Source of the DNA: a virus
Lineage: Duplodnaviria > Heunggongvirae > Uroviricota > Caudoviricetes
Strand: one strand, 5' to 3'
Virus record (IMG/VR): IMGVR_UViG_2541047954_000008
DNA length: 34,146 bases
Under the pieces are notes generated by a model, which saw nothing but the letters and a program-made list of their open reading frames with translations, had not been told where the DNA came from and did no database searches. Shown piece after piece: positions 17,764-33,255 of this stretch. Both the position numbers and the translations under genes were made by a program. Each line of letters starts with the position of its first letter. Position 1 is the first letter of the stretch.

Positions 17764-17838
<75 letters not shown>

Positions 17839-17841
17839 ATA

Positions 17842-17917
<76 letters not shown>

Positions 17918-17919
17918 AC

Positions 17920-17996
17920 TGGACCGCCACCGGGGACTCGAACCTCGCACACTCAACTTAAAGGGTTGACGCTCTTTCCTGATGAGCTAGTGGCGG
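17920..17996 (-). tRNA. tRNA-like gene, anticodon UUU (Lys) if canonical, with C at position 33
   Basis: Acceptor CCGCCAC/GTGGCGG, anticodon stem UCAAC/GUUGA, loop CCUUUAA, encoded CCA; noncanonical C33 and one T-stem mismatch. Confidence 0.5.
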
Positions 17997-17997
17997 T

Positions 17998-18073
17998 TGG
18001 TGGCCCTTGCTGGATTTGAACCAGCAACCTGGCGATTATGAGTCGCTCGCTCTCACCACTGAGCTAAAGGGCC
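17998..18073 (-). tRNA. tRNA with CAU anticodon (Ile2 lysidine-type or Met), ileX/ileZ-like
   Basis: Acceptor GGCCCUU, anticodon loop CUCAUAA, T-loop TTCAAAT, encoded CCA. Confidence 0.7.
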
Positions 18074-19141: not shown

Positions 19142-19831
19142 TCAATCTACTTTTGCAACACTTTGCTTTGAAAATGCCGCCTTTTGTATTGAACGTATTC
19201 TCATTACAAACAATAAAGCCTCACTATCCAGTCGGTGAAAAATGTGTTTCATTGCAACCCAGTGACGAGTAAATGTTTTGGACCAGTTTTTAGTTGTCAC
19301 TCCCGCCAGTAATGCCAGCTCCTGGTATTCATAACCTTCCCCACCAAAAAGTTCTGCTTTTACTGCCTGCGCCGCCAGCCAGATTAATTTTTTCAGGCGT
19401 TCCTGCGTTTTCCCTGCAATTTTTCTGGTACCGGATTGAGTATTAAATTCATTCCACGCCCACTGTGTTATCGCGATCTGATATTCCCAACAAATACTCC
19501 CGCTGTAACACCACAACAACCAGGCTTTATGATGTTCTTCAAGAGACAGAACAGCCCGCCGCCACGATGATGTCGAAAACTCAACCGGACTGACCAGAGG
19601 AATTGACGTCCCCTTCGCCAGCGATTGCTTTCCCGGGATTGGTGGATTATCCCGCGTTATCATTTTTCCAGTCACTTCATCGCGGTACCGGATTTTTTTT
19701 CGCCTGTAACGCCCTGTATCGAACATGGCATTCTCTTGCCAGGCTTCAAGCTGACCTTTTGTTGCCCCACTCAAATCAGCGGTGGCGATAATGAGCTGCT
19801 CACGCACAAACTGTAAATACTGGTTATTCAT
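19142..19831 (-). CDS. Putative late-gene antiterminator (Q-like)
   Basis: ATG 19831-19829 overlaps RusA stop (ATGA), GGAG upstream; position between RusA and a terminator preceding the lysis genes. Call by synteny. Confidence 0.55.
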   Translation of the reverse strand: MNNQYLQFVREQLIIATADLSGATKGQLEAWQENAMFDTGRYRRKKIRYRDEVTGKMITRDNPPIPGKQSLAKGTSIPLVSPVEFSTSSWRRAVLSLEEHHKAWLLWCYSGSICWEYQIAITQWAWNEFNTQSGTRKIAGKTQERLKKLIWLAAQAVKAELFGGEGYEYQELALLAGVTTKNWSKTFTRHWVAMKHIFHRLDSEALLFVMRIRSIQKAAFSKQSVAKVD

Positions 19832-20193
19832 GCGCACTCCAGTTCTGTGATTTTTATCCCCAGCCGCCCACCAGGAACGAGCTGACCGCGCACAATATTG
19901 ATTTCATCAAACTGCTCGTCGTCTATAAGTAGTCCGGCATGCGTCAGCGCATCCAGTGGTGCCTTCAGGATATTGTCCAGGTCGCGGCGGCGCTTATCCG
20001 GTGGCTCTGCAATAATCTTTATCGCCAGCCTTCCGGACAGGCTTAATTTCAGCCGCTGCTGGCGAACAATTAGCGCCACATCACGGCGATAACGCTTTCC
20101 AGCTTCCGAGATGAAATACGTATTGCCATGACGTCGCCAGTAGGTATTCACCGTCGGCGGGTAAGGCAAAACAAATTCTATGCGTTCAGTCAT
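19828..20193 (-). CDS. rusA: RusA-family Holliday junction resolvase
   Basis: 121 aa; motifs YPPTVNTYWR and DKRRRDLDNILKAPLDAL recalled as RusA-like. Confidence 0.8.
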   Translation of the reverse strand: MTERIEFVLPYPPTVNTYWRRHGNTYFISEAGKRYRRDVALIVRQQRLKLSLSGRLAIKIIAEPPDKRRRDLDNILKAPLDALTHAGLLIDDEQFDEINIVRGQLVPGGRLGIKITELECA

Positions 20194-21249
20194 TCATGCT
20201 TTCCACTTCAGGACACCCGAATTTCTCGCGTGCATTAAAAAACGAATCAGCAACAACAGCTGGCTGCCGTGTTTTTCTTCAAAATCTTTTACCCCGGCGT
20301 GCAGTTCGTTATGACATTTACGGCACAGCGGAATAACAAACAAATCATCAGCCTTTGTTCCCATCCCTCCCAGTCCATGACCAATGATGTGATGCGGATC
20401 ATCTGCCTGATTACCGCACGTCATGCATTTCTGCGTTTTTACCCAACGCGTGTATACAGGCATCTCTTCCCGTTGTGGTTTCTGGCGCTGGAGATACTGA
20501 GCCGGTGACTCCGGATCAACGGCAATGCTGACCACCGTCTTTTCCTGTGGCGGGTTTTGCTGGTGGGCGTGAGGCAGCGGCGCAAGATTTTTTGTGCGCT
20601 GCTTCAGTATGCTGGTGGCGGTCTGCTCTCCCGGTACGATGTCGCTTTCACGGTACATTGAGCGGATTTTTTCCGCACGCAACCCCAGCGAACGACGTAA
20701 TACCGCTTCCGGTAGCGCGTCCGCCACCTGATTGCGGACCGCCCACCAGGATAATTCAGCCAAAGATAATTCACGCTCCTGCGTACCGCTTATTGCGTGA
20801 CCGATGACGTCAATCATCCATGCTGACAGGTTTTGATGAGCAAGTTGCTCGAGTGATTCGGATGTCTGGTCACGCAGCTGGTTGTCGCAGTGCCAGCACA
20901 ACACCATTGCGCCGGTACCATAACGGTGAATGACGGTTTCGCTGTGATGATAATCGCCGTGTGGCCACTGGCAGGATTTAATATGGCGCAACAGCCAGTC
21001 AGACAATGCACCAGCACCACCAGCAGCACGAATCACCCGTGCGTTACTGAAAAACGGCAGCAATGTTTTGTCTTCCACCAGCGGCTGGCGAACGGCAGGA
21101 ACGACCCCGGACGGCAGATTACGCATGCTTTTCGGTTCCGGCTCCACCAATACCCGGGTATTGTGGAATACCGGCATGGATTCACGGCCCGGCTTAACGA
21201 TCACCAGCCCGAGTTCCGGTACCAGAACAGGTCGAAGTAATACCCGCAC
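20194..21249 (-). CDS. DUF968-type protein with C-terminal HNH-like motif (YdfU-like)
   Basis: 351 aa, GTG start with GGAGG upstream; C-terminal CMTCGN...HHIIGHG...CRKCHNELH. Confidence 0.65.
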   Translation of the reverse strand: MRVLLRPVLVPELGLVIVKPGRESMPVFHNTRVLVEPEPKSMRNLPSGVVPAVRQPLVEDKTLLPFFSNARVIRAAGGAGALSDWLLRHIKSCQWPHGDYHHSETVIHRYGTGAMVLCWHCDNQLRDQTSESLEQLAHQNLSAWMIDVIGHAISGTQERELSLAELSWWAVRNQVADALPEAVLRRSLGLRAEKIRSMYRESDIVPGEQTATSILKQRTKNLAPLPHAHQQNPPQEKTVVSIAVDPESPAQYLQRQKPQREEMPVYTRWVKTQKCMTCGNQADDPHHIIGHGLGGMGTKADDLFVIPLCRKCHNELHAGVKDFEEKHGSQLLLLIRFLMHARNSGVLKWKA

Positions 21250-21825: not shown

Positions 21826-22218
21826 CTACTGCCCTGTTTTAACGAAGTTTTTAAAGGAAACAACTGCCTGATAGGGGTTTGGTTGACAGCCAAACATATT
21901 ATCGCAAAAAGGCTTGATGAAAATTCTTGAGGATCCATCTTCATTTGGCATTTTACTCACTTGATAAGCGAGGAATGGACTATTTGGAGAGGGATTATAA
22001 GTGGAAATTAGCGTGTCTGTCGCCGTTTGAATTTTCCATGAGGAATTATTAGCCAACCAGAATTGCGCTCGTTTCCAATAAAAGTCACATTGCTTTTCAT
22101 CATTACATGTTAGTGGCTTCATTGCTTCTGCTTTCAACGCTGGATCGACCTTTGCTGCACACCCTCCCAACATTACTGTTGCAATCATTACACCTGCGAC
22201 TAAAACAAGTTTCTTCAT
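21826..22218 (-). CDS. AT-rich cargo gene: secreted lipoprotein, function unknown
   Basis: 130 aa; signal peptide MKKLVLVAGVMIATVMLGGC with lipobox Cys; AT-rich; terminator-like hairpins on both sides. Confidence 0.65.
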   Translation of the reverse strand: MKKLVLVAGVMIATVMLGGCAAKVDPALKAEAMKPLTCNDEKQCDFYWKRAQFWLANNSSWKIQTATDTLISTYNPSPNSPFLAYQVSKMPNEDGSSRIFIKPFCDNMFGCQPNPYQAVVSFKNFVKTGQ

Positions 22219-22361
22219 CTCCCTGCCCCATCAATAAAAGTTCGGTTCTCTAATAACTAGAGTTAATCAACGGAAAAAACGCCGAAGCGGGTTAAGTGTG
22301 GGTGCATTGAGGATGCCTGACTCATCAGAGGTGGCGAGGGATTTCTCCCCCGCCAGGTCTC

Positions 22362-22517
22362 TTACTCCTCAGGTTCGTAAGCTGTGAAGACAGCGACCTC
22401 CGTCTGGCCGGTTCGGATTCGTACCTCGCAGAGGTCTTTCCTCGTTACCAGTGCCGTCACTATGACGGTTAAACAGATGACGATCAGGGCGATTAGCATC
22501 GCCTTTTGCTGCTTCAT
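22362..22517 (-). CDS. hok: Hok/Gef-family type I toxin (51 aa)
   Basis: MKQQKAMLIALIVICLTVIVTALVTRKDLCEVRIRTGQTEVAVFTAYEPEE, recalled as HokD/RelF-like; AGGAGAAG 8 nt upstream; in-frame upstream ATG at 22574 gives a 70-codon ORF. Confidence 0.85.
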   Translation of the reverse strand: MKQQKAMLIALIVICLTVIVTALVTRKDLCEVRIRTGQTEVAVFTAYEPEE

Positions 22518-22728
22518 AGCCTGCTTCTCCTTGCCTTTCGGCACGTAAGAGGCTAACCTACATGTGTTCAGCATGGATTGAGCCTCAGATTAATGTTAAG
22601 CGTCTTGCGGGACGCGTAATGTTAACTGGGGCTTTTCTCTATCTGCCGTTGGTGTTCATGCCCGAGGCAGATAGCCTCAAGCACCCGCAGCAATTCTACT
22701 TAACTCACGTCACCTCGCCAATATAAAA

Positions 22729-22818
22729 TCAATCAGAGAGGTGATTCATAAGAACGATAACAAGACAATAAATTGCCATTACTGCCGCAATAGCCAGCGC
22801 ACATTTCAGAACCAGCAC
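22729..22818 (-). CDS. Candidate 29-aa hydrophobic peptide upstream of hok
   Basis: GTG 22818-22816 with GGGAGG 5 nt upstream; translation (M)LVLKCALAIAAVMAIYCLVIVLMNHLSD; flanked by a 13-bp direct repeat. Below the track size cut-off. Confidence 0.25.
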   Translation of the reverse strand: MLVLKCALAIAAVMAIYCLVIVLMNHLSD

Positions 22819-22946
22819 GATGACCTCCCATATTTGACGTACACACGCATGATTCAATATGTAGCAACCTATTTCTTGCTTCAATATAAAATCAGGTATT
22901 GTTGTACAACTATTTAACTAACTCCCTATCCCCACATCTCAGGCGC

Positions 22947-23063
22947 TCAACGTCTGTGTGCGGGGCGTTTTTTAATACCTTCCCCCCAGCGGCAAATCGA
23001 ATACACCACCAGCGCCACCGCCATTGCAATTCCTACCGTTGTGAATGCTTCAGGCCAGGTCAT
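22947..23063 (-). CDS. Candidate 38-aa single-TM peptide coupled to the 171-aa gene
   Basis: ATG 23063-23061 overlaps upstream stop (ATGA); MTWPEAFTTVGIAMAVALVVYSICRWGEGIKKRPAHRR. Confidence 0.3.
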   Translation of the reverse strand: MTWPEAFTTVGIAMAVALVVYSICRWGEGIKKRPAHRR

Positions 23064-23575
23064 CGCAAAACATCCTCCGCGCTTATCAGTTCGTTCCGCT
23101 TCAGGTAGTCCATCGCCTTCTCCGGTAATTTGCAGTCTGGATTAGCTTTTTTCAGTTGACTGACCAGTCGTTTAACCCACATTGTTAATTCGCCAACTTG
23201 GTTACTGGATGCTAATGGATTGTCGGCTTTACCCAGAATGACAGCACAGCAGGCCTCTTTGAGAACCCAATCAACAGCATCTTTCCATACTCCTGTTTCG
23301 ACTGGTGGATTCTCACGCTTTACCTGTTCATAAAAGCGCACGGCTTTAACCAGTCCTTCTGATATCACCGGGGCTGGCGGGGTAGTGAATAAGGCCTGAA
23401 TCTCATAGCTCGGCCTGTCGTTGCAATCCTCTTTTGTCGGTACATATTTCCAGTCACCAACCCACATCTTCTCCTGAAAGTCCGTAACGCCCTTTTTCAC
23501 ATAGCGATATCGCCATGCAACTGGTTTTTCCTGCCCTACCGTTTCATGCCCTTCCTGATAATTAATCTCGCTCAT
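23060..23575 (-). CDS. Hypothetical protein (171 aa)
   Basis: Clean ORF, start overlaps upstream stop (ATGA); no recognisable motif. Confidence 0.6.
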   Translation of the reverse strand: MSEINYQEGHETVGQEKPVAWRYRYVKKGVTDFQEKMWVGDWKYVPTKEDCNDRPSYEIQALFTTPPAPVISEGLVKAVRFYEQVKRENPPVETGVWKDAVDWVLKEACCAVILGKADNPLASSNQVGELTMWVKRLVSQLKKANPDCKLPEKAMDYLKRNELISAEDVLR

Positions 23576-24067: not shown

Positions 24068-24541
24068 CTATTTCATAAAAATAATCCAGTGGGTTTTATC
24101 GTTTTTTCCTGTTCGTTGACCGATAACAGGTTTTCTGTCGGTCAGTATCAATATCTGGCGAACAGGTATTTGCGTTTCATTCCATTTAAAAATCAGAACG
24201 CCGGATGGACGCAACACACGAAAGGCTTCTTTAAATCCCTGCCGCAAATCATCACGCCAGGTATCTTTATTCAGCCGTCCATATTTCTTTCCCATCCAGG
24301 CGTTATCACCAACACGCTCAAGATGCGGAGGGTCGAATATAACCATCGAAAAAGATGCGTCTGCAAATGGTAGTGCACGAAAATCAGCTATCAGATCAGG
24401 ACTGATAATCAGGCGTCGTCCATCACACAATGTGTGCTCTTCCTTTCTGATATCGCTAAATATCGCCCGGTCGTCATTCTTATCGAACCAGAACATGCGA
24501 CTGCCACAGCACATATCAAGAATGGTTGCCGGTGCACTCAC
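24068..24541 (-). CDS. Orphan DNA methyltransferase (DPPH motif)
   Basis: 157 aa; LDMCCGSRMF (motif I-like) then IFDPPH (motif IV-like); GTG start with GGAGG upstream overlapping upstream stop; no restriction partner seen. Confidence 0.65.
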   Translation of the reverse strand: MSAPATILDMCCGSRMFWFDKNDDRAIFSDIRKEEHTLCDGRRLIISPDLIADFRALPFADASFSMVIFDPPHLERVGDNAWMGKKYGRLNKDTWRDDLRQGFKEAFRVLRPSGVLIFKWNETQIPVRQILILTDRKPVIGQRTGKNDKTHWIIFMK

Positions 24542-24960
24542 TGCGCTACCTCCGGAAAATTACCCTGATAGAAAGCCAGTACACGCTGCATAGCTTCGCT
24601 CTTCCGGCACTCGCGACAGATTATATTCAGACGCCCGTCATATCGGCGTATTTCTCCGTCTGGTAATGACCAGATAAGGTCAGGATCAACCACAACCGTT
24701 TTTTTCACCTTTGCCCTGGATAGTTTTTTGCGGGCGTTTTGCCAGTCCTTACGGGCCTGTTCAGACGGAAATAACCCGTAACCAGAGTTGTATACATCGC
24801 CACTGGCAACCAGCTCTCTGGCCAGAACGCTCATCAGATATCTTGTTGCCCCAGTTTTAGCTTCCAGTTGTCGTAACGTCTCGCGCCCACTCTGGCGTAC
24901 GAGTTCAAGAACCTGCCCTTTAATTTTTTCCCGCTCTTCTTGTGTAAAAACTTTTGCCAC
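24538..24960 (-). CDS. Hypothetical protein (140 aa), possible DNA-binding
   Basis: GTG start with AGGAGGG upstream; HTH-like TLRQLEAKTGATRYLMSVLAREL; follows replication gene. Confidence 0.55.
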   Translation of the reverse strand: MAKVFTQEEREKIKGQVLELVRQSGRETLRQLEAKTGATRYLMSVLARELVASGDVYNSGYGLFPSEQARKDWQNARKKLSRAKVKKTVVVDPDLIWSLPDGEIRRYDGRLNIICRECRKSEAMQRVLAFYQGNFPEVAQ

Positions 24961-26142: not shown

Positions 26143-26568
26143 TCAATGTACTGCCACAGCATTTCCTGCCGGGCCACCACGGTTCATCTGATTGAAACCG
26201 GCGATTGCCACTGCGACAAAATCATCAGCGTCTCTCACCAATCGCTCCCGCGTCTCCACCAGCTCCCGAAAATAAGCTGAACTGTGGCTGCGCATTCTGG
26301 CCACCAGCAAAGGTGGCATTGCCTTTTCGATCGCTGGTAACAACGCCTGAATTTTTTCAACTGCATCAGGGGTGTCTTTCTCTACCCAGCGGAAAATTTT
26401 CTGGGTATTGCGAGCCAGGGCTTCCGGATGGCTGTCGTCATACAGTTCAGGAAACGTCATACCCAACTCAAAATAAGCCTGGGTTATTCCAGCTGCTGGA
26501 ACTTTTTCGCCATCAGGACGCGCCCAGGCATTCATCGCCATGCGGATGTGTTCATGCTTGATTTTCAT
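26143..26568 (-). CDS. YdaT-like early protein
   Basis: ATG 26568-26566 (MKIKHEHI) with AAGGGGGGA upstream; position between cro-like and O-like as in Rac ydaS-ydaT-ydaU (recalled). Confidence 0.5.
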   Translation of the reverse strand: MKIKHEHIRMAMNAWARPDGEKVPAAGITQAYFELGMTFPELYDDSHPEALARNTQKIFRWVEKDTPDAVEKIQALLPAIEKAMPPLLVARMRSHSSAYFRELVETRERLVRDADDFVAVAIAGFNQMNRGGPAGNAVAVH

Positions 26569-26794
26569 GAATCCCCCCTTGGTTAGAAGGCGGATTATGA
26601 TCAGAACCGGGAATGACAACCGTCGGTATGTGTAACTCATATTTGAGCGCCCCGGCAGTGACTGCCTGAATTAGCAACGCCCATTTCCACGGAACCTCTT
26701 CCCCCCACATGCTGACTGTGGTTTTTGACGTTCCTAGAGCTGCGGCTGTTTTAACAACTCCGCCAAAATAGCCTAATACTTCTGATTTTTTCAT
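26552..26794 (-). CDS. Cro-like HTH regulator
   Basis: 80 aa from ATG 26794-26792 (GGAG upstream); HTH-like VVKTAAALGTSKTTVSMW; divergent from cI-like gene. Confidence 0.7.
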   Translation of the reverse strand: MKKSEVLGYFGGVVKTAAALGTSKTTVSMWGEEVPWKWALLIQAVTAGALKYELHIPTVVIPGSDHNPPSNQGGIHENQA

Positions 26795-26885: not shown

Positions 26886-27524
26886 ATGAGCAAGCAAACA
26901 ATATCTGAACGCATAACCCAACGTATGCATGCGCTAAACCTGAAAGGCAAAGACCTTGTCAATGCCACTGGCGCATCAAAAGGCTCCGTAAGTCAATGGA
27001 TGAACGGTGGAGGAGCGCCGTCCTCGCGTTACATAAGTTCACTGGCAAAGGTATTGAAAGTAAACGAAAATTGGCTTCTTAATGGAGGAGAGTTAAATAC
27101 AGGTGATTCGCTTGATCTATCTTTACCGCCGATAAAAACGGTTCCGCTACTATCACTTCAGCAGGCAGCAAGCTGGAGTGATTATATGAAAAATTCCTCA
27201 ATAACCTCTTGTGTGCAGCTTGTCGGAGAAATCCCGGCCAATACCTTTGCAGTTGTTCTAGAGAGTGACAGTATGTCAACATCTGGTGGGGGAGTTTCCA
27301 TCCCAAATGGTTCAACAGTTTTTGTTGATCCCGATCGAACCGTACAACCAGGAAATATTGTCCTTGCCTTACCCAAAGGGACCACAACACCTGTCATTCG
27401 TAAACTGGAGATAGAAGGGCCGGATATTCTTTTAGTCCCCACGAATCCTCGCTACCCTTCAATTATGCTGGATGATCTATCTTGCATATTGGGCGTATGC
27501 TTTAAAATTCAACAAGATATTTAA
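26886..27524 (+). CDS. cI-like repressor (N-terminal HTH, C-terminal S24 LexA-like peptidase)
   Basis: 212 aa; HTH GKDLVNATGASKGSVSQWMNG; C-terminal ESDSMS (Ser) and downstream Lys consistent with Ser-Lys dyad. Confidence 0.85.
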   Translation: MSKQTISERITQRMHALNLKGKDLVNATGASKGSVSQWMNGGGAPSSRYISSLAKVLKVNENWLLNGGELNTGDSLDLSLPPIKTVPLLSLQQAASWSDYMKNSSITSCVQLVGEIPANTFAVVLESDSMSTSGGGVSIPNGSTVFVDPDRTVQPGNIVLALPKGTTTPVIRKLEIEGPDILLVPTNPRYPSIMLDDLSCILGVCFKIQQDI

Positions 27525-28687: not shown

Positions 28688-28745
28688 TTTCTGGTGACGT
28701 TTGGCGGTATCAGTTTTACTCCGTGACTGCTCTGCCGCCCTTTTT
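28688..28745 (+). ncRNA. dicF: DicF small RNA (antisense regulator of ftsZ) with hairpin and T-run terminator
   Basis: tttctggtgacgtttggcggtatcagttttactccgtgactgctctgccgcccttttt recalled as DicF; ends hand-estimated. Confidence 0.7.
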
Positions 28746-33165: not shown

Positions 33166-33255
33166 TGGCGGAGAGAGGGGGATTTGAACCCCCGGTGGAG
33201 TTGCCCCCACTCCGGTTTTCGAGACCGGTCCGTTCAGCCGCTCCGGCATCTCTCC
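33166..33255 (-). tRNA. serU: tRNA-Ser (anticodon CGA), host gene serving as att site
   Basis: 90-nt cloverleaf with long variable arm: GGAGAGATGCCGGAGCGGCTGAACGGACCGGTCTCGAAAACCGG...CTCTCCGCCA. Confidence 0.8.

Follow-up and report, generated by a model that had tools for sequence, protein, structure and literature searches.

A probably complete hok/mok/sok cassette beside a probable separate gene for a small membrane peptide in a lambdoid prophage of Escherichia coli

The IMG/VR virus record IMGVR_UViG_2541047954_000008, a stretch of 34,146 nucleotides (nt) that we call the window, contains a gene for a Hok-type toxin preceded by a long interval with a tiny hydrophobic open reading frame (ORF) of 29 codons. 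Our analysis indicates, with a probability of about 0.85, that the segment 22265-22721 is a complete and canonical hok/mok/sok cassette of the hokC/hokD/hokW type, and that the adjoining segment 22729-22884 is a separate gene for a membrane peptide. Catalogues of complete hok/sok loci in prophages exist, and the hokW-sokW pair among them has been characterised, so that the cassette is of a known kind: it adds one more allele to a well-known system and brings conceptually nothing new. The modest novelty is the 29-codon membrane-peptide gene, which is widespread, unannotated and without a family model. The evidence comes from identity at the sequence level, matches to families, folds computed in silico, and the conservation and distribution of the elements, and from it we infer transcription start and end points, the function of Sok, toxicity and the translation of the small ORF. 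The features of the cassette are the following.

22517..22362, minus strand: coding sequence of the hok (hokD-type) toxin, 51 codons, with the Shine-Dalgarno (SD) sequence AAGGAG at 22532..22527 (PF01848, PHROG 251)
22574..22362, minus strand: mok, ORF of 70 codons that shares the frame of hok, with its ATG at 22574..22572 and the SD sequence GAGG at 22586..22583 (ORF list, mokC homology)
22686..22265, minus strand: predicted full-length hok mRNA, about 422 nt (RF01794, K-12 hokC alignment, fold)
22721..22693, minus strand: hok promoter, TTGGCG-17-TAGAAT (promoter scan, 9/12 matches)
22675..22686, minus strand: tac, mRNA positions 1-12 (fold)
22627..22634, minus strand: ucb, or anti-SD, mRNA positions 53-60 (fold)
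22549..22554, minus strand: dcb, mRNA positions 133-138 (fold)
22300..22312, minus strand: fbi, mRNA positions 375-387, CCUCAAUGCACCC (fold, conservation)
22264..22279, minus strand: weakened terminator of the hok mRNA, CGC-UUCG-GCG followed by U6 (from the sequence; no call by the terminator scan)
22531..22559, plus strand: sok promoter, TTGCCT-17-TAACCT (same position as the K-12 sokC promoter)
about 22566-22642, plus strand: predicted Sok RNA, about 77 nt (homology to annotated sokC, fold)

Hok matches the Pfam family HOK_GEF (PF01848) with 81.6 bits against a cut-off of 22, and PHROG 251, 'MokW-like host killing', at 2.8e-33. Its coding sequence differs from that of K-12 hokD only by a CTA in place of a TTA, leucine in both cases, and since this sole difference is synonymous the two peptides are identical. 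The toxin is strongly conserved, the same 51-residue peptide being encoded in 58 of 89 loci. The earlier note on this DNA had pointed to an intact Hok with a strong SD sequence and to an in-frame ATG at 22574 opening a frame of 70 codons; both observations stand, the second as the start of mok. Indeed, K-12 mokC and hokC end at one stop codon, which places the K-12 pair in frame, as in the window. The start codon and the N-terminus MLNTCR of the window's mok align with mokC, and the ATG is present in every complete locus aligned, with variation in codons 2-5. Near the other end of the toxin, the codon of Tyr47 (22376-22379, minus strand) reads UAC and is followed by G, and this UACG motif makes it a candidate site for editing by TadA; adenosine-to-inosine recoding by TadA, from tyrosine to cysteine near that position, has been described for the hokC, hokD and hokE mRNAs (bioRxiv 10.1101/2025.08.07.668861).

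A covariance-model search, proposed as a check by the earlier note, matched Rfam RF01794 over 22686..22512 of the minus strand with 113.5 bits (gathering score 59), covering the full model from 1 to 157. The -10 hexamer of the hok promoter ends 6 nt ahead of the 5' base of the mRNA as aligned to Rfam and hokC, and it aligns with the TATAAT of hokC. With a 5' end at about 22686, right after the promoter, the leader would measure about 170 nt, as is canonical. On the strength of the Rfam match, the hokC alignment and the promoter we rejected the long leader of the earlier note, and what had been counted as about 390 bp of non-coding DNA upstream divides into about 110 nt of hok mRNA (22575-22686), about 35 nt of promoter and the 90 nt of the small ORF.

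The folding of this mRNA was studied through minimum-free-energy predictions in silico. The 422-nt molecule (22686 to 22265) folds at -166.7 kcal/mol, the predictions ranging from -165 to -167, and is closed by pairing of its 5' and 3' ends, and a 415-nt version (22686 to 22272) gives a fold z of -6.5. In the full-length fold tac (1-12) pairs with fbi (375-387) over 12 bp with one bulged U, and positions 54-60 of ucb pair with the region of the mok SD sequence (positions 100-106). When 59 nt are removed from the 3' end, tac 1-8 pairs with ucb and the mok SD sequence (101-106) pairs with dcb. A metastable tac hairpin of -19 kcal/mol arises within the first 50 nt. Also, fbi is kept in 155 of 179 related loci as well as in K-12 hokD. 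The folding-switch model of plasmid R1, with tac/fbi, ucb, dcb and the metastable hairpin, is summarised in PMC9841398, and the predicted folds of the window's mRNA reproduce that switch exactly as it is described there.

On the opposite strand, a promoter, a hairpin and complementarity to the mok start are all present at the level of the sequence. The 5' end of the predicted Sok was placed from the annotated sokC, whose start lies 8 nt inside mokC. Its terminator stem-loop extends over about 22580-22634, with the apex at 22600-22615, and is followed by the U-rich tail CUUUUCUCU; the predicted fold has -33 kcal/mol and a z of -6.0, and the apex carries an insertion of 18 nt relative to sokC and to the Rfam consensus. 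The promoter hexamers are kept as TTGCCT or TTGACC and as TAACCT or TAATCT in the commonest of 48 variants (179 loci). The suggestion of the earlier note that this copy, unlike K-12 hokD, retains its own antisense control agrees with the alignment, the sok promoter and the hairpin. The plus-strand hairpin that it proposed as a possible antisense terminator (gcgtc, ttgcgg, gacgc) is indeed present, at 22600-22615 and hence 1-2 nt away from the positions first given, and would form the apex of the Sok terminator stem-loop.

Some side observations concern the antisense RNA. The 5' tail of Sok, equivalent to mok codons 2-5 (22560-22575), is hypervariable among hok loci that are otherwise near-identical, a pattern to be anticipated were hok/sok copies in the same cell to diversify against cross-talk. 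RF01794, named 'sok antitoxin', hits the hok-sense strand both in the window (22512-22686, minus) and in the related locus L120 (602-754), and at K-12 hokC its match is on the hokC strand, opposite the annotated sokC. The consensus of RF01794 ends in the hok SD sequence and AUG, which means that the model represents the hok-sense leader; annotators who label its hits as sok are on the wrong strand, with a span of more than twice the length of the RNA. A permissive Rfam search of 22200-23100 for other small RNAs returned chance-level matches only (for instance isrK, 16 bits).

The working of the cassette can be sketched by homology with hok/sok of R1. The sigma-70 promoter at 22721..22693 would make a stable hok mRNA of about 420 nt, locked by the tac-fbi pairing of its two ends while ucb sequesters the mok SD sequence. 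Slow trimming from the 3' end would remove fbi, upon which tac would pair with ucb and expose the translation initiation region of mok, whose translation (70 codons, in frame) would be coupled to that of the 51-residue membrane toxin. Sok, a short-lived product of the opposite strand with a length of about 77 nt, would pair across the mok start, so that translation is blocked and the duplex cleaved. On prophage induction Sok would be lost and Hok would help lysis and phage release, likely as in hokW-sokW of prophage Sp5; prophage retention is another possible role. The loss of Sok could come about if antiterminated read-through of the early-right operon disturbed the convergent sok promoter, a mechanism suggested by the co-orientation of hok with that operon.

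Upstream of the cassette lies the small gene, with these features.

22818..22729, minus strand: 29-codon ORF with the peptide (f)MLVLKCALAIAAVMAIYCLVIVLMNHLSD, GTG start and the SD sequence GGGAGG at 22829..22824 (conservation)
22884..22856, minus strand: putative promoter of the 29-codon gene, TTGAAG-17-CATATT (conservation)
22719-22731: first copy of a 13-bp direct repeat, CAATATAAAATCA, spanning the TGA that ends the 29-codon ORF together with the -35/upstream region of the hok promoter
22882-22894: second copy of the repeat, CAATATAAAATCA, spanning the -35/upstream region of the putative 29-codon promoter

The 29-codon hydrophobic ORF with its own GGGAGG was already recognised by the earlier note; the start codon is GTG and not ATG, and GGGAGG sits 5 nt before it. 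The peptide amounts to one hydrophobic helix, with a grand average of hydropathy (GRAVY) of 1.95 and a top 19-residue window of 2.84. A pattern search of IMG/VR for the ORF yielded 116 viral stretches, and among the roughly 120 viral loci then scored the exact length of 29 codons is kept in all but 2. Across diverged upstream variants the ORF retains its SD sequence (GGAGG) and its GTG while adjoining bases vary. Distinct single-site variants comprise 14 synonymous and 15 non-synonymous changes where 26% synonymous would be expected (p = 0.0096), and the other frames over the ORF show no such bias or contain stop codons. A paralogue of 34 codons, MSDDISLAMEGALAVIAVVGVYCLVVFLMDRLGN, introduced by AAGGAGG and an ATG, is identical to the 29-codon peptide at 14 of 25 aligned residues, and nucleotide differences between the two classes fall mainly at codon positions 1 and 3. 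Length, start, SD sequence, synonymous bias and conservation in a diverged copy all point to a protein-coding sequence, and the ORF is very probably a real gene for a predicted single-pass membrane peptide. It would be read from its own SD sequence and probably from its own promoter: the CATATT of the putative -10 is kept in nearly all of 40 distinct upstream variants, and the -35 is TTGAAG or TTGAAT in most of them despite diverged spacers.

The peptide has no Pfam or PHROG match at E <= 1, and NCBIfam gave only ATP synthase subunit c at a sub-threshold, chance-level E of 0.05. We also considered whether it is a degenerate Hok or a known toxin and rejected this, as there is no family match and the R..LCE motif of Hok is missing. 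A literature search with the 29-residue string found no paper that contains it. Queried with a TTG-extended, 51-codon frame of the ORF, the protein database lists only entries named "hypothetical" or "membrane protein", from Escherichia and with inconsistent N-termini.

Of 5426 complete E. coli genomes, 1903 (about 35%) contain sequence matching the gene; 39 of the 40 matches listed have no annotated feature beneath them, and in none of the 40 does RefSeq place a feature over the ORF itself. It was found in four sequenced phages; in the deposited sequence of one, HannyBb (L231, 2394-2683), the region lies under two opposite-strand 'hypothetical protein' calls that are probably mis-annotations. 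Among GTDB representatives the family is confined to Escherichia, Shigella and three contigs of metagenome-assembled genomes, the latter probably E. coli phage contamination. In 105 loci the downstream sequence was long enough for inspection: a HokD start follows at a distance of 266-290 nt in 89 (288-290 nt in 88 of them), two have other hok alleles, and 14 have no hok at all, the ORF there being followed by unrelated DNA and then by a convergent gene of 120 codons. Conversely, an independent search that brought in 106 new hok-leader loci recovered the 29-codon ORF in 10 and its 34-codon paralogue in about a dozen more; most of the others have different upstream sequence, and in many of these a small MxWPEA...CRWG ORF abuts the hok promoter. 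By this distribution the 29-codon gene is an independent cassette rather than part of the hok locus, where the earlier note had placed it: it lives without hok in 14 of 105 loci and is absent from most other hok loci. The family is, as far as its occurrence in these collections tells, specific to prophages of Escherichia and Shigella, and shares an insertion hot spot for morons with or without hok. A perfect palindrome, CGATATGGGAATTCCCATATCG, is seen between the 34-codon ORF and the hok promoter in L201, L205, L133 and other loci; it has no U-run and is hence not an obvious terminator.

The two copies of the 13-bp repeat reported by the earlier note at 22719-22731 and 22882-22894 are the only hits of CAATATAAAATCA in the window, even at one mismatch (0.06 expected; two hits in 0 of 100 shuffles). 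Throughout 2.39 Mb of related phage loci the 13-mer is confined to these two contexts. On the minus strand the repeat reads TGATTTTATATTG; each copy supplies A/T-rich upstream sequence and the opening bases of a -35 hexamer, the contexts being TGATTTTATATTGAAG at the small gene and TGATTTTATATTGGCG at hok. The idea that the repeats form a conserved functional bracket was not supported, nor was that of a target duplication left by a mobile element: among 21 loci that share this upstream variant only 6 keep both copies exact, and the commoner upstream variant lacks the exact second copy. To us the two copies look like promoter-upstream stretches of similar sequence where modules join, and not like a selected bracket.

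Several points weigh against our interpretation. The transcript ends are all placed by homology or consensus. Most related loci have a CCCGC-UUCG-GCGGG terminator with a U-run, of which the 3' arm is cut short at a mosaic junction in the window and in 11 other loci; with the stem down to 3 bp, read-through into the downstream lipoprotein gene is possible, and 3'-end formation of the hok mRNA may differ from that in R1. The sok -10, TAACCT, has 3/6 consensus bases, below the threshold of the promoter scan. As for the small gene, its excess of synonymous changes is modest (p about 0.01, 29 variants), and a sub-variant comprising about 20 loci has lost the putative -35. Also, the chromosomal hokA, hokB and hokC gave no post-segregational killing (cited in bioRxiv 10.1101/2025.08.07.668861), and the activity of the window's copy is for this reason not guaranteed. 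Together with the shortened terminator stem and the weak sok -10 hexamer, these chromosomal loci would fit a cassette that is structurally intact and yet inactive, a relic carried passively, as has been proposed for chromosomal hok loci. We consider this unlikely here, because the regulatory elements are all intact and the fold is as in R1, viable phages carry similar hokD-type cassettes, the identical Hok recurs in 58 of 89 loci, and hokW-sokW, whose sequence was not compared with that of the window, is a functional prophage system.

The small ORF allows other readings as well. It could be untranslated, its conservation stemming from a constraint on DNA or RNA, such as sequence upstream of the hok promoter or a non-coding transcript. 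The missing RefSeq feature and family model, the GTG start, a synonymous excess of p about 0.01 only and a similar synonymous count in antisense frame 1 would all be compatible with this. However, the antisense frames hold stop codons, the ORF length is exact in all but 2 of about 120 loci, GGAGG and GTG are kept while adjoining bases vary, and the paralogue with AAGGAGG and ATG preserves the peptide (14/25) despite many nucleotide differences; moreover, the ORF persists in loci without hok and so is not simply DNA upstream of the hok promoter. We find a non-coding origin of this conservation quite improbable. If the ORF is translated, as we think, it could encode a second type I toxin in a tandem toxin-antitoxin arrangement, with a plus-strand cis-antisense RNA of about 240 nt (from 22700-22729 to 22949-22975). 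The peptide is small, strongly hydrophobic (GRAVY 1.95), directly beside hok and not accounted for by any known family, and on the plus strand the ORF is flanked by a TTAACT-18-TAAAAT site on one side and by a terminator-like hairpin plus T-run on the other. Yet to our knowledge the mRNAs of known type I toxins are structured, whereas the fold of the small mRNA is ordinary (z = -0.76, with 47 of 200 shuffles at least as stable) and its 5' untranslated region (UTR) is only about 30 nt long. The plus-strand -10 is not conserved, being TGAAAT or TGTAAT in other loci with loss of the key A2; the terminator exists in the window-type variant only, lies inside a 38-codon ORF and is at chance level (0.8 per 900 bp). 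The 34-codon paralogue lies inside a phage operon, about 35 nt after the preceding ORF and with no apparent promoter of its own. Regulation in trans by Sok was rejected, as 120 of 500 shuffles match the duplex energy of its pairing with the translation initiation region of the 29-codon ORF. The evidence for a second type I toxin is weak and we give the idea little credence. A broader proposal would make the 29- and 34-residue peptides an unrecognised prophage effector that works with hok, as a second toxin or a modulator of Hok, from a promoter that also yields 5'-extended hok transcripts. There is no terminator between the 29-codon gene and hok, and the stop codon of the former overlaps the -35 region of the latter; if the proposal were true, upstream transcription could tune the hok promoter or the folding of its mRNA, aiding the loss of Sok and the activation of Hok on induction. 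It strikes us as rather far-fetched at present, and we keep to a canonical cassette next to an independent gene.

The setting of both modules is given by the following features.

26886-27524, plus strand: S24 repressor (Pfam)
26143..26640, minus strand: YdaT (Pfam)
24538..24960, minus strand: DUF977 (Pfam)
22947..23063, minus strand: 38-codon ORF, MTWPEAFTTVGIAMAVALVVYSICRWGEGIKKRPAHRR, whose start overlaps the stop of an upstream 171-codon gene (ATGA)
20194..21249, minus strand: DUF968/YdfU (Pfam)
19828..20193, minus strand: RusA (Pfam)
19142..19837, minus strand: antiterminator Q (Pfam)
28689-28740, plus strand: DicF small RNA, full-length, in the early-left arm (Rfam, 76.7 bits)
17767-18073 and 33169-33255, minus strand: five transfer RNA (tRNA) genes, four in the first interval, downstream of Q, and one in the second (Rfam)

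By its gene content the window is a lambdoid, Qin/Rac-like E. coli prophage; DicF and tRNA genes are typical of Qin-like and Stx-like lambdoid prophages. The early-right operon is on the minus strand, which puts the hok locus in its nin-like stretch, and the cassette forms a moron between the replication genes and RusA/Q, co-oriented with the operon. The gene order is the same in the closest complete genomes (97% identity), where RefSeq names the toxin hokD, and the sequenced phages HannyBb and Evi carry the same arrangement. Directly downstream of hok (21826..22218, minus strand) is a gene for a lipoprotein of 130 residues with the lipobox LGGC, matching PHROG 16082, whose N-terminus bears a weak likeness to the superinfection-exclusion lipoprotein Cor (E = 0.007). 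On the other side, the 38-codon ORF resembles another unannotated single-pass membrane peptide, and it has widespread 27-codon homologues with a ...CRWG end, which at many loci abut the hok promoter directly. The 38-codon ORF, the 29-codon ORF and hok would be three consecutive genes for tiny membrane peptides.

The value of the locus is that it offers an intact counterpart of the truncated hokD of K-12 with every regulatory element mapped. As to the 29-codon gene, its absence from K-12 at the hokD position means that small-protein screens in K-12 may have missed it. Its place at a hot spot for morons, in the company of hok and the 38-codon ORF, makes it a reasonable candidate for small-protein studies, with lysogeny, the timing of lysis and effects on superinfection as themes.

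Compared with known systems, the 29-codon peptide has in common with TisB, ZorO, ShoB, Ibs and DinQ its size (about 19-35 residues), a single hydrophobic helix and a location on a mobile element beside another toxin; it differs from them in having neither a structured mRNA nor a convincing conserved antisense gene. For the hok cassette, the pairings known from hok/sok of R1 (tac/fbi, ucb/mok SD, tac/ucb, mok SD/dcb and the metastable 5' hairpin) are all matched in silico. The mok and hok of R1 are read in different frames, whereas mok is in frame in the window and in hokC. Also, R1 is a plasmid and the window a prophage, and the Hok peptides have diverged; HokW is reported to be 44% identical to the Hok of R1 (PMC8621323). 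The hokW-sokW pair of the Stx2 prophage Sp5 and phage 933W (E. coli O157:H7) is an experimentally shown type I toxin-antitoxin system: after induction it brings faster lysis and doubled phage release, with sokW RNA disappearing and Hok then reaching the inner membrane (PMC8621323). Prophages show an enrichment of hok genes (bioRxiv 10.1101/2025.08.07.668861). The Hok of hokW-sokW has 51 residues, as in the window, and it is PHROG 251, named for MokW, that matches the window's Hok; sokW has 71 nt complementary to the hok 5' UTR against the roughly 77 nt predicted here, and no upstream small ORF is reported in that system (PMC8621323). In the 24 kb of Sakai Sp5 examined, hokW was not located.

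The closest comparisons are found in K-12. The hokC/mokC/sokC locus (gef) aligns with the window continuously from the 5' end of the mRNA (GGGTGCTTGAGGCT) through leader, mok, sok and hok, and has the same RF01794 match on the same relative strand. Relative to hokC the window has the insertion of 18 nt at the Sok apex, and beyond the hok promoter, on its upstream side, homology ends; the 29-codon ORF is absent from hokC, which has IS186 immediately downstream. With hokD (relF, in the Qin prophage) the window shares the identical Hok peptide, a nearly identical fbi and 3' region, and the same prophage neighbourhood with Rem, YdfU/DUF968, Q and DicF. In the MG1655 alignment, homology to hokD begins only at CAGGAGAAGCAGGCTATG and runs from the hok SD sequence to the terminator, relE replacing what lies upstream. 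With relBE abutting its hok SD sequence, K-12 hokD has no promoter, tac, ucb, mok or sok; relBE was not found in the ORF list of the window's hok flank, and the relBE-hokD arrangement of K-12 does not occur here. K-12 hokD, for its part, retains the full terminator stem that the window's allele does not. Since K-12 hokD keeps only the part from the hok SD sequence to the terminator, the copy in the window is the complete form, and the window presumably holds the ancestral form of the hokD locus.

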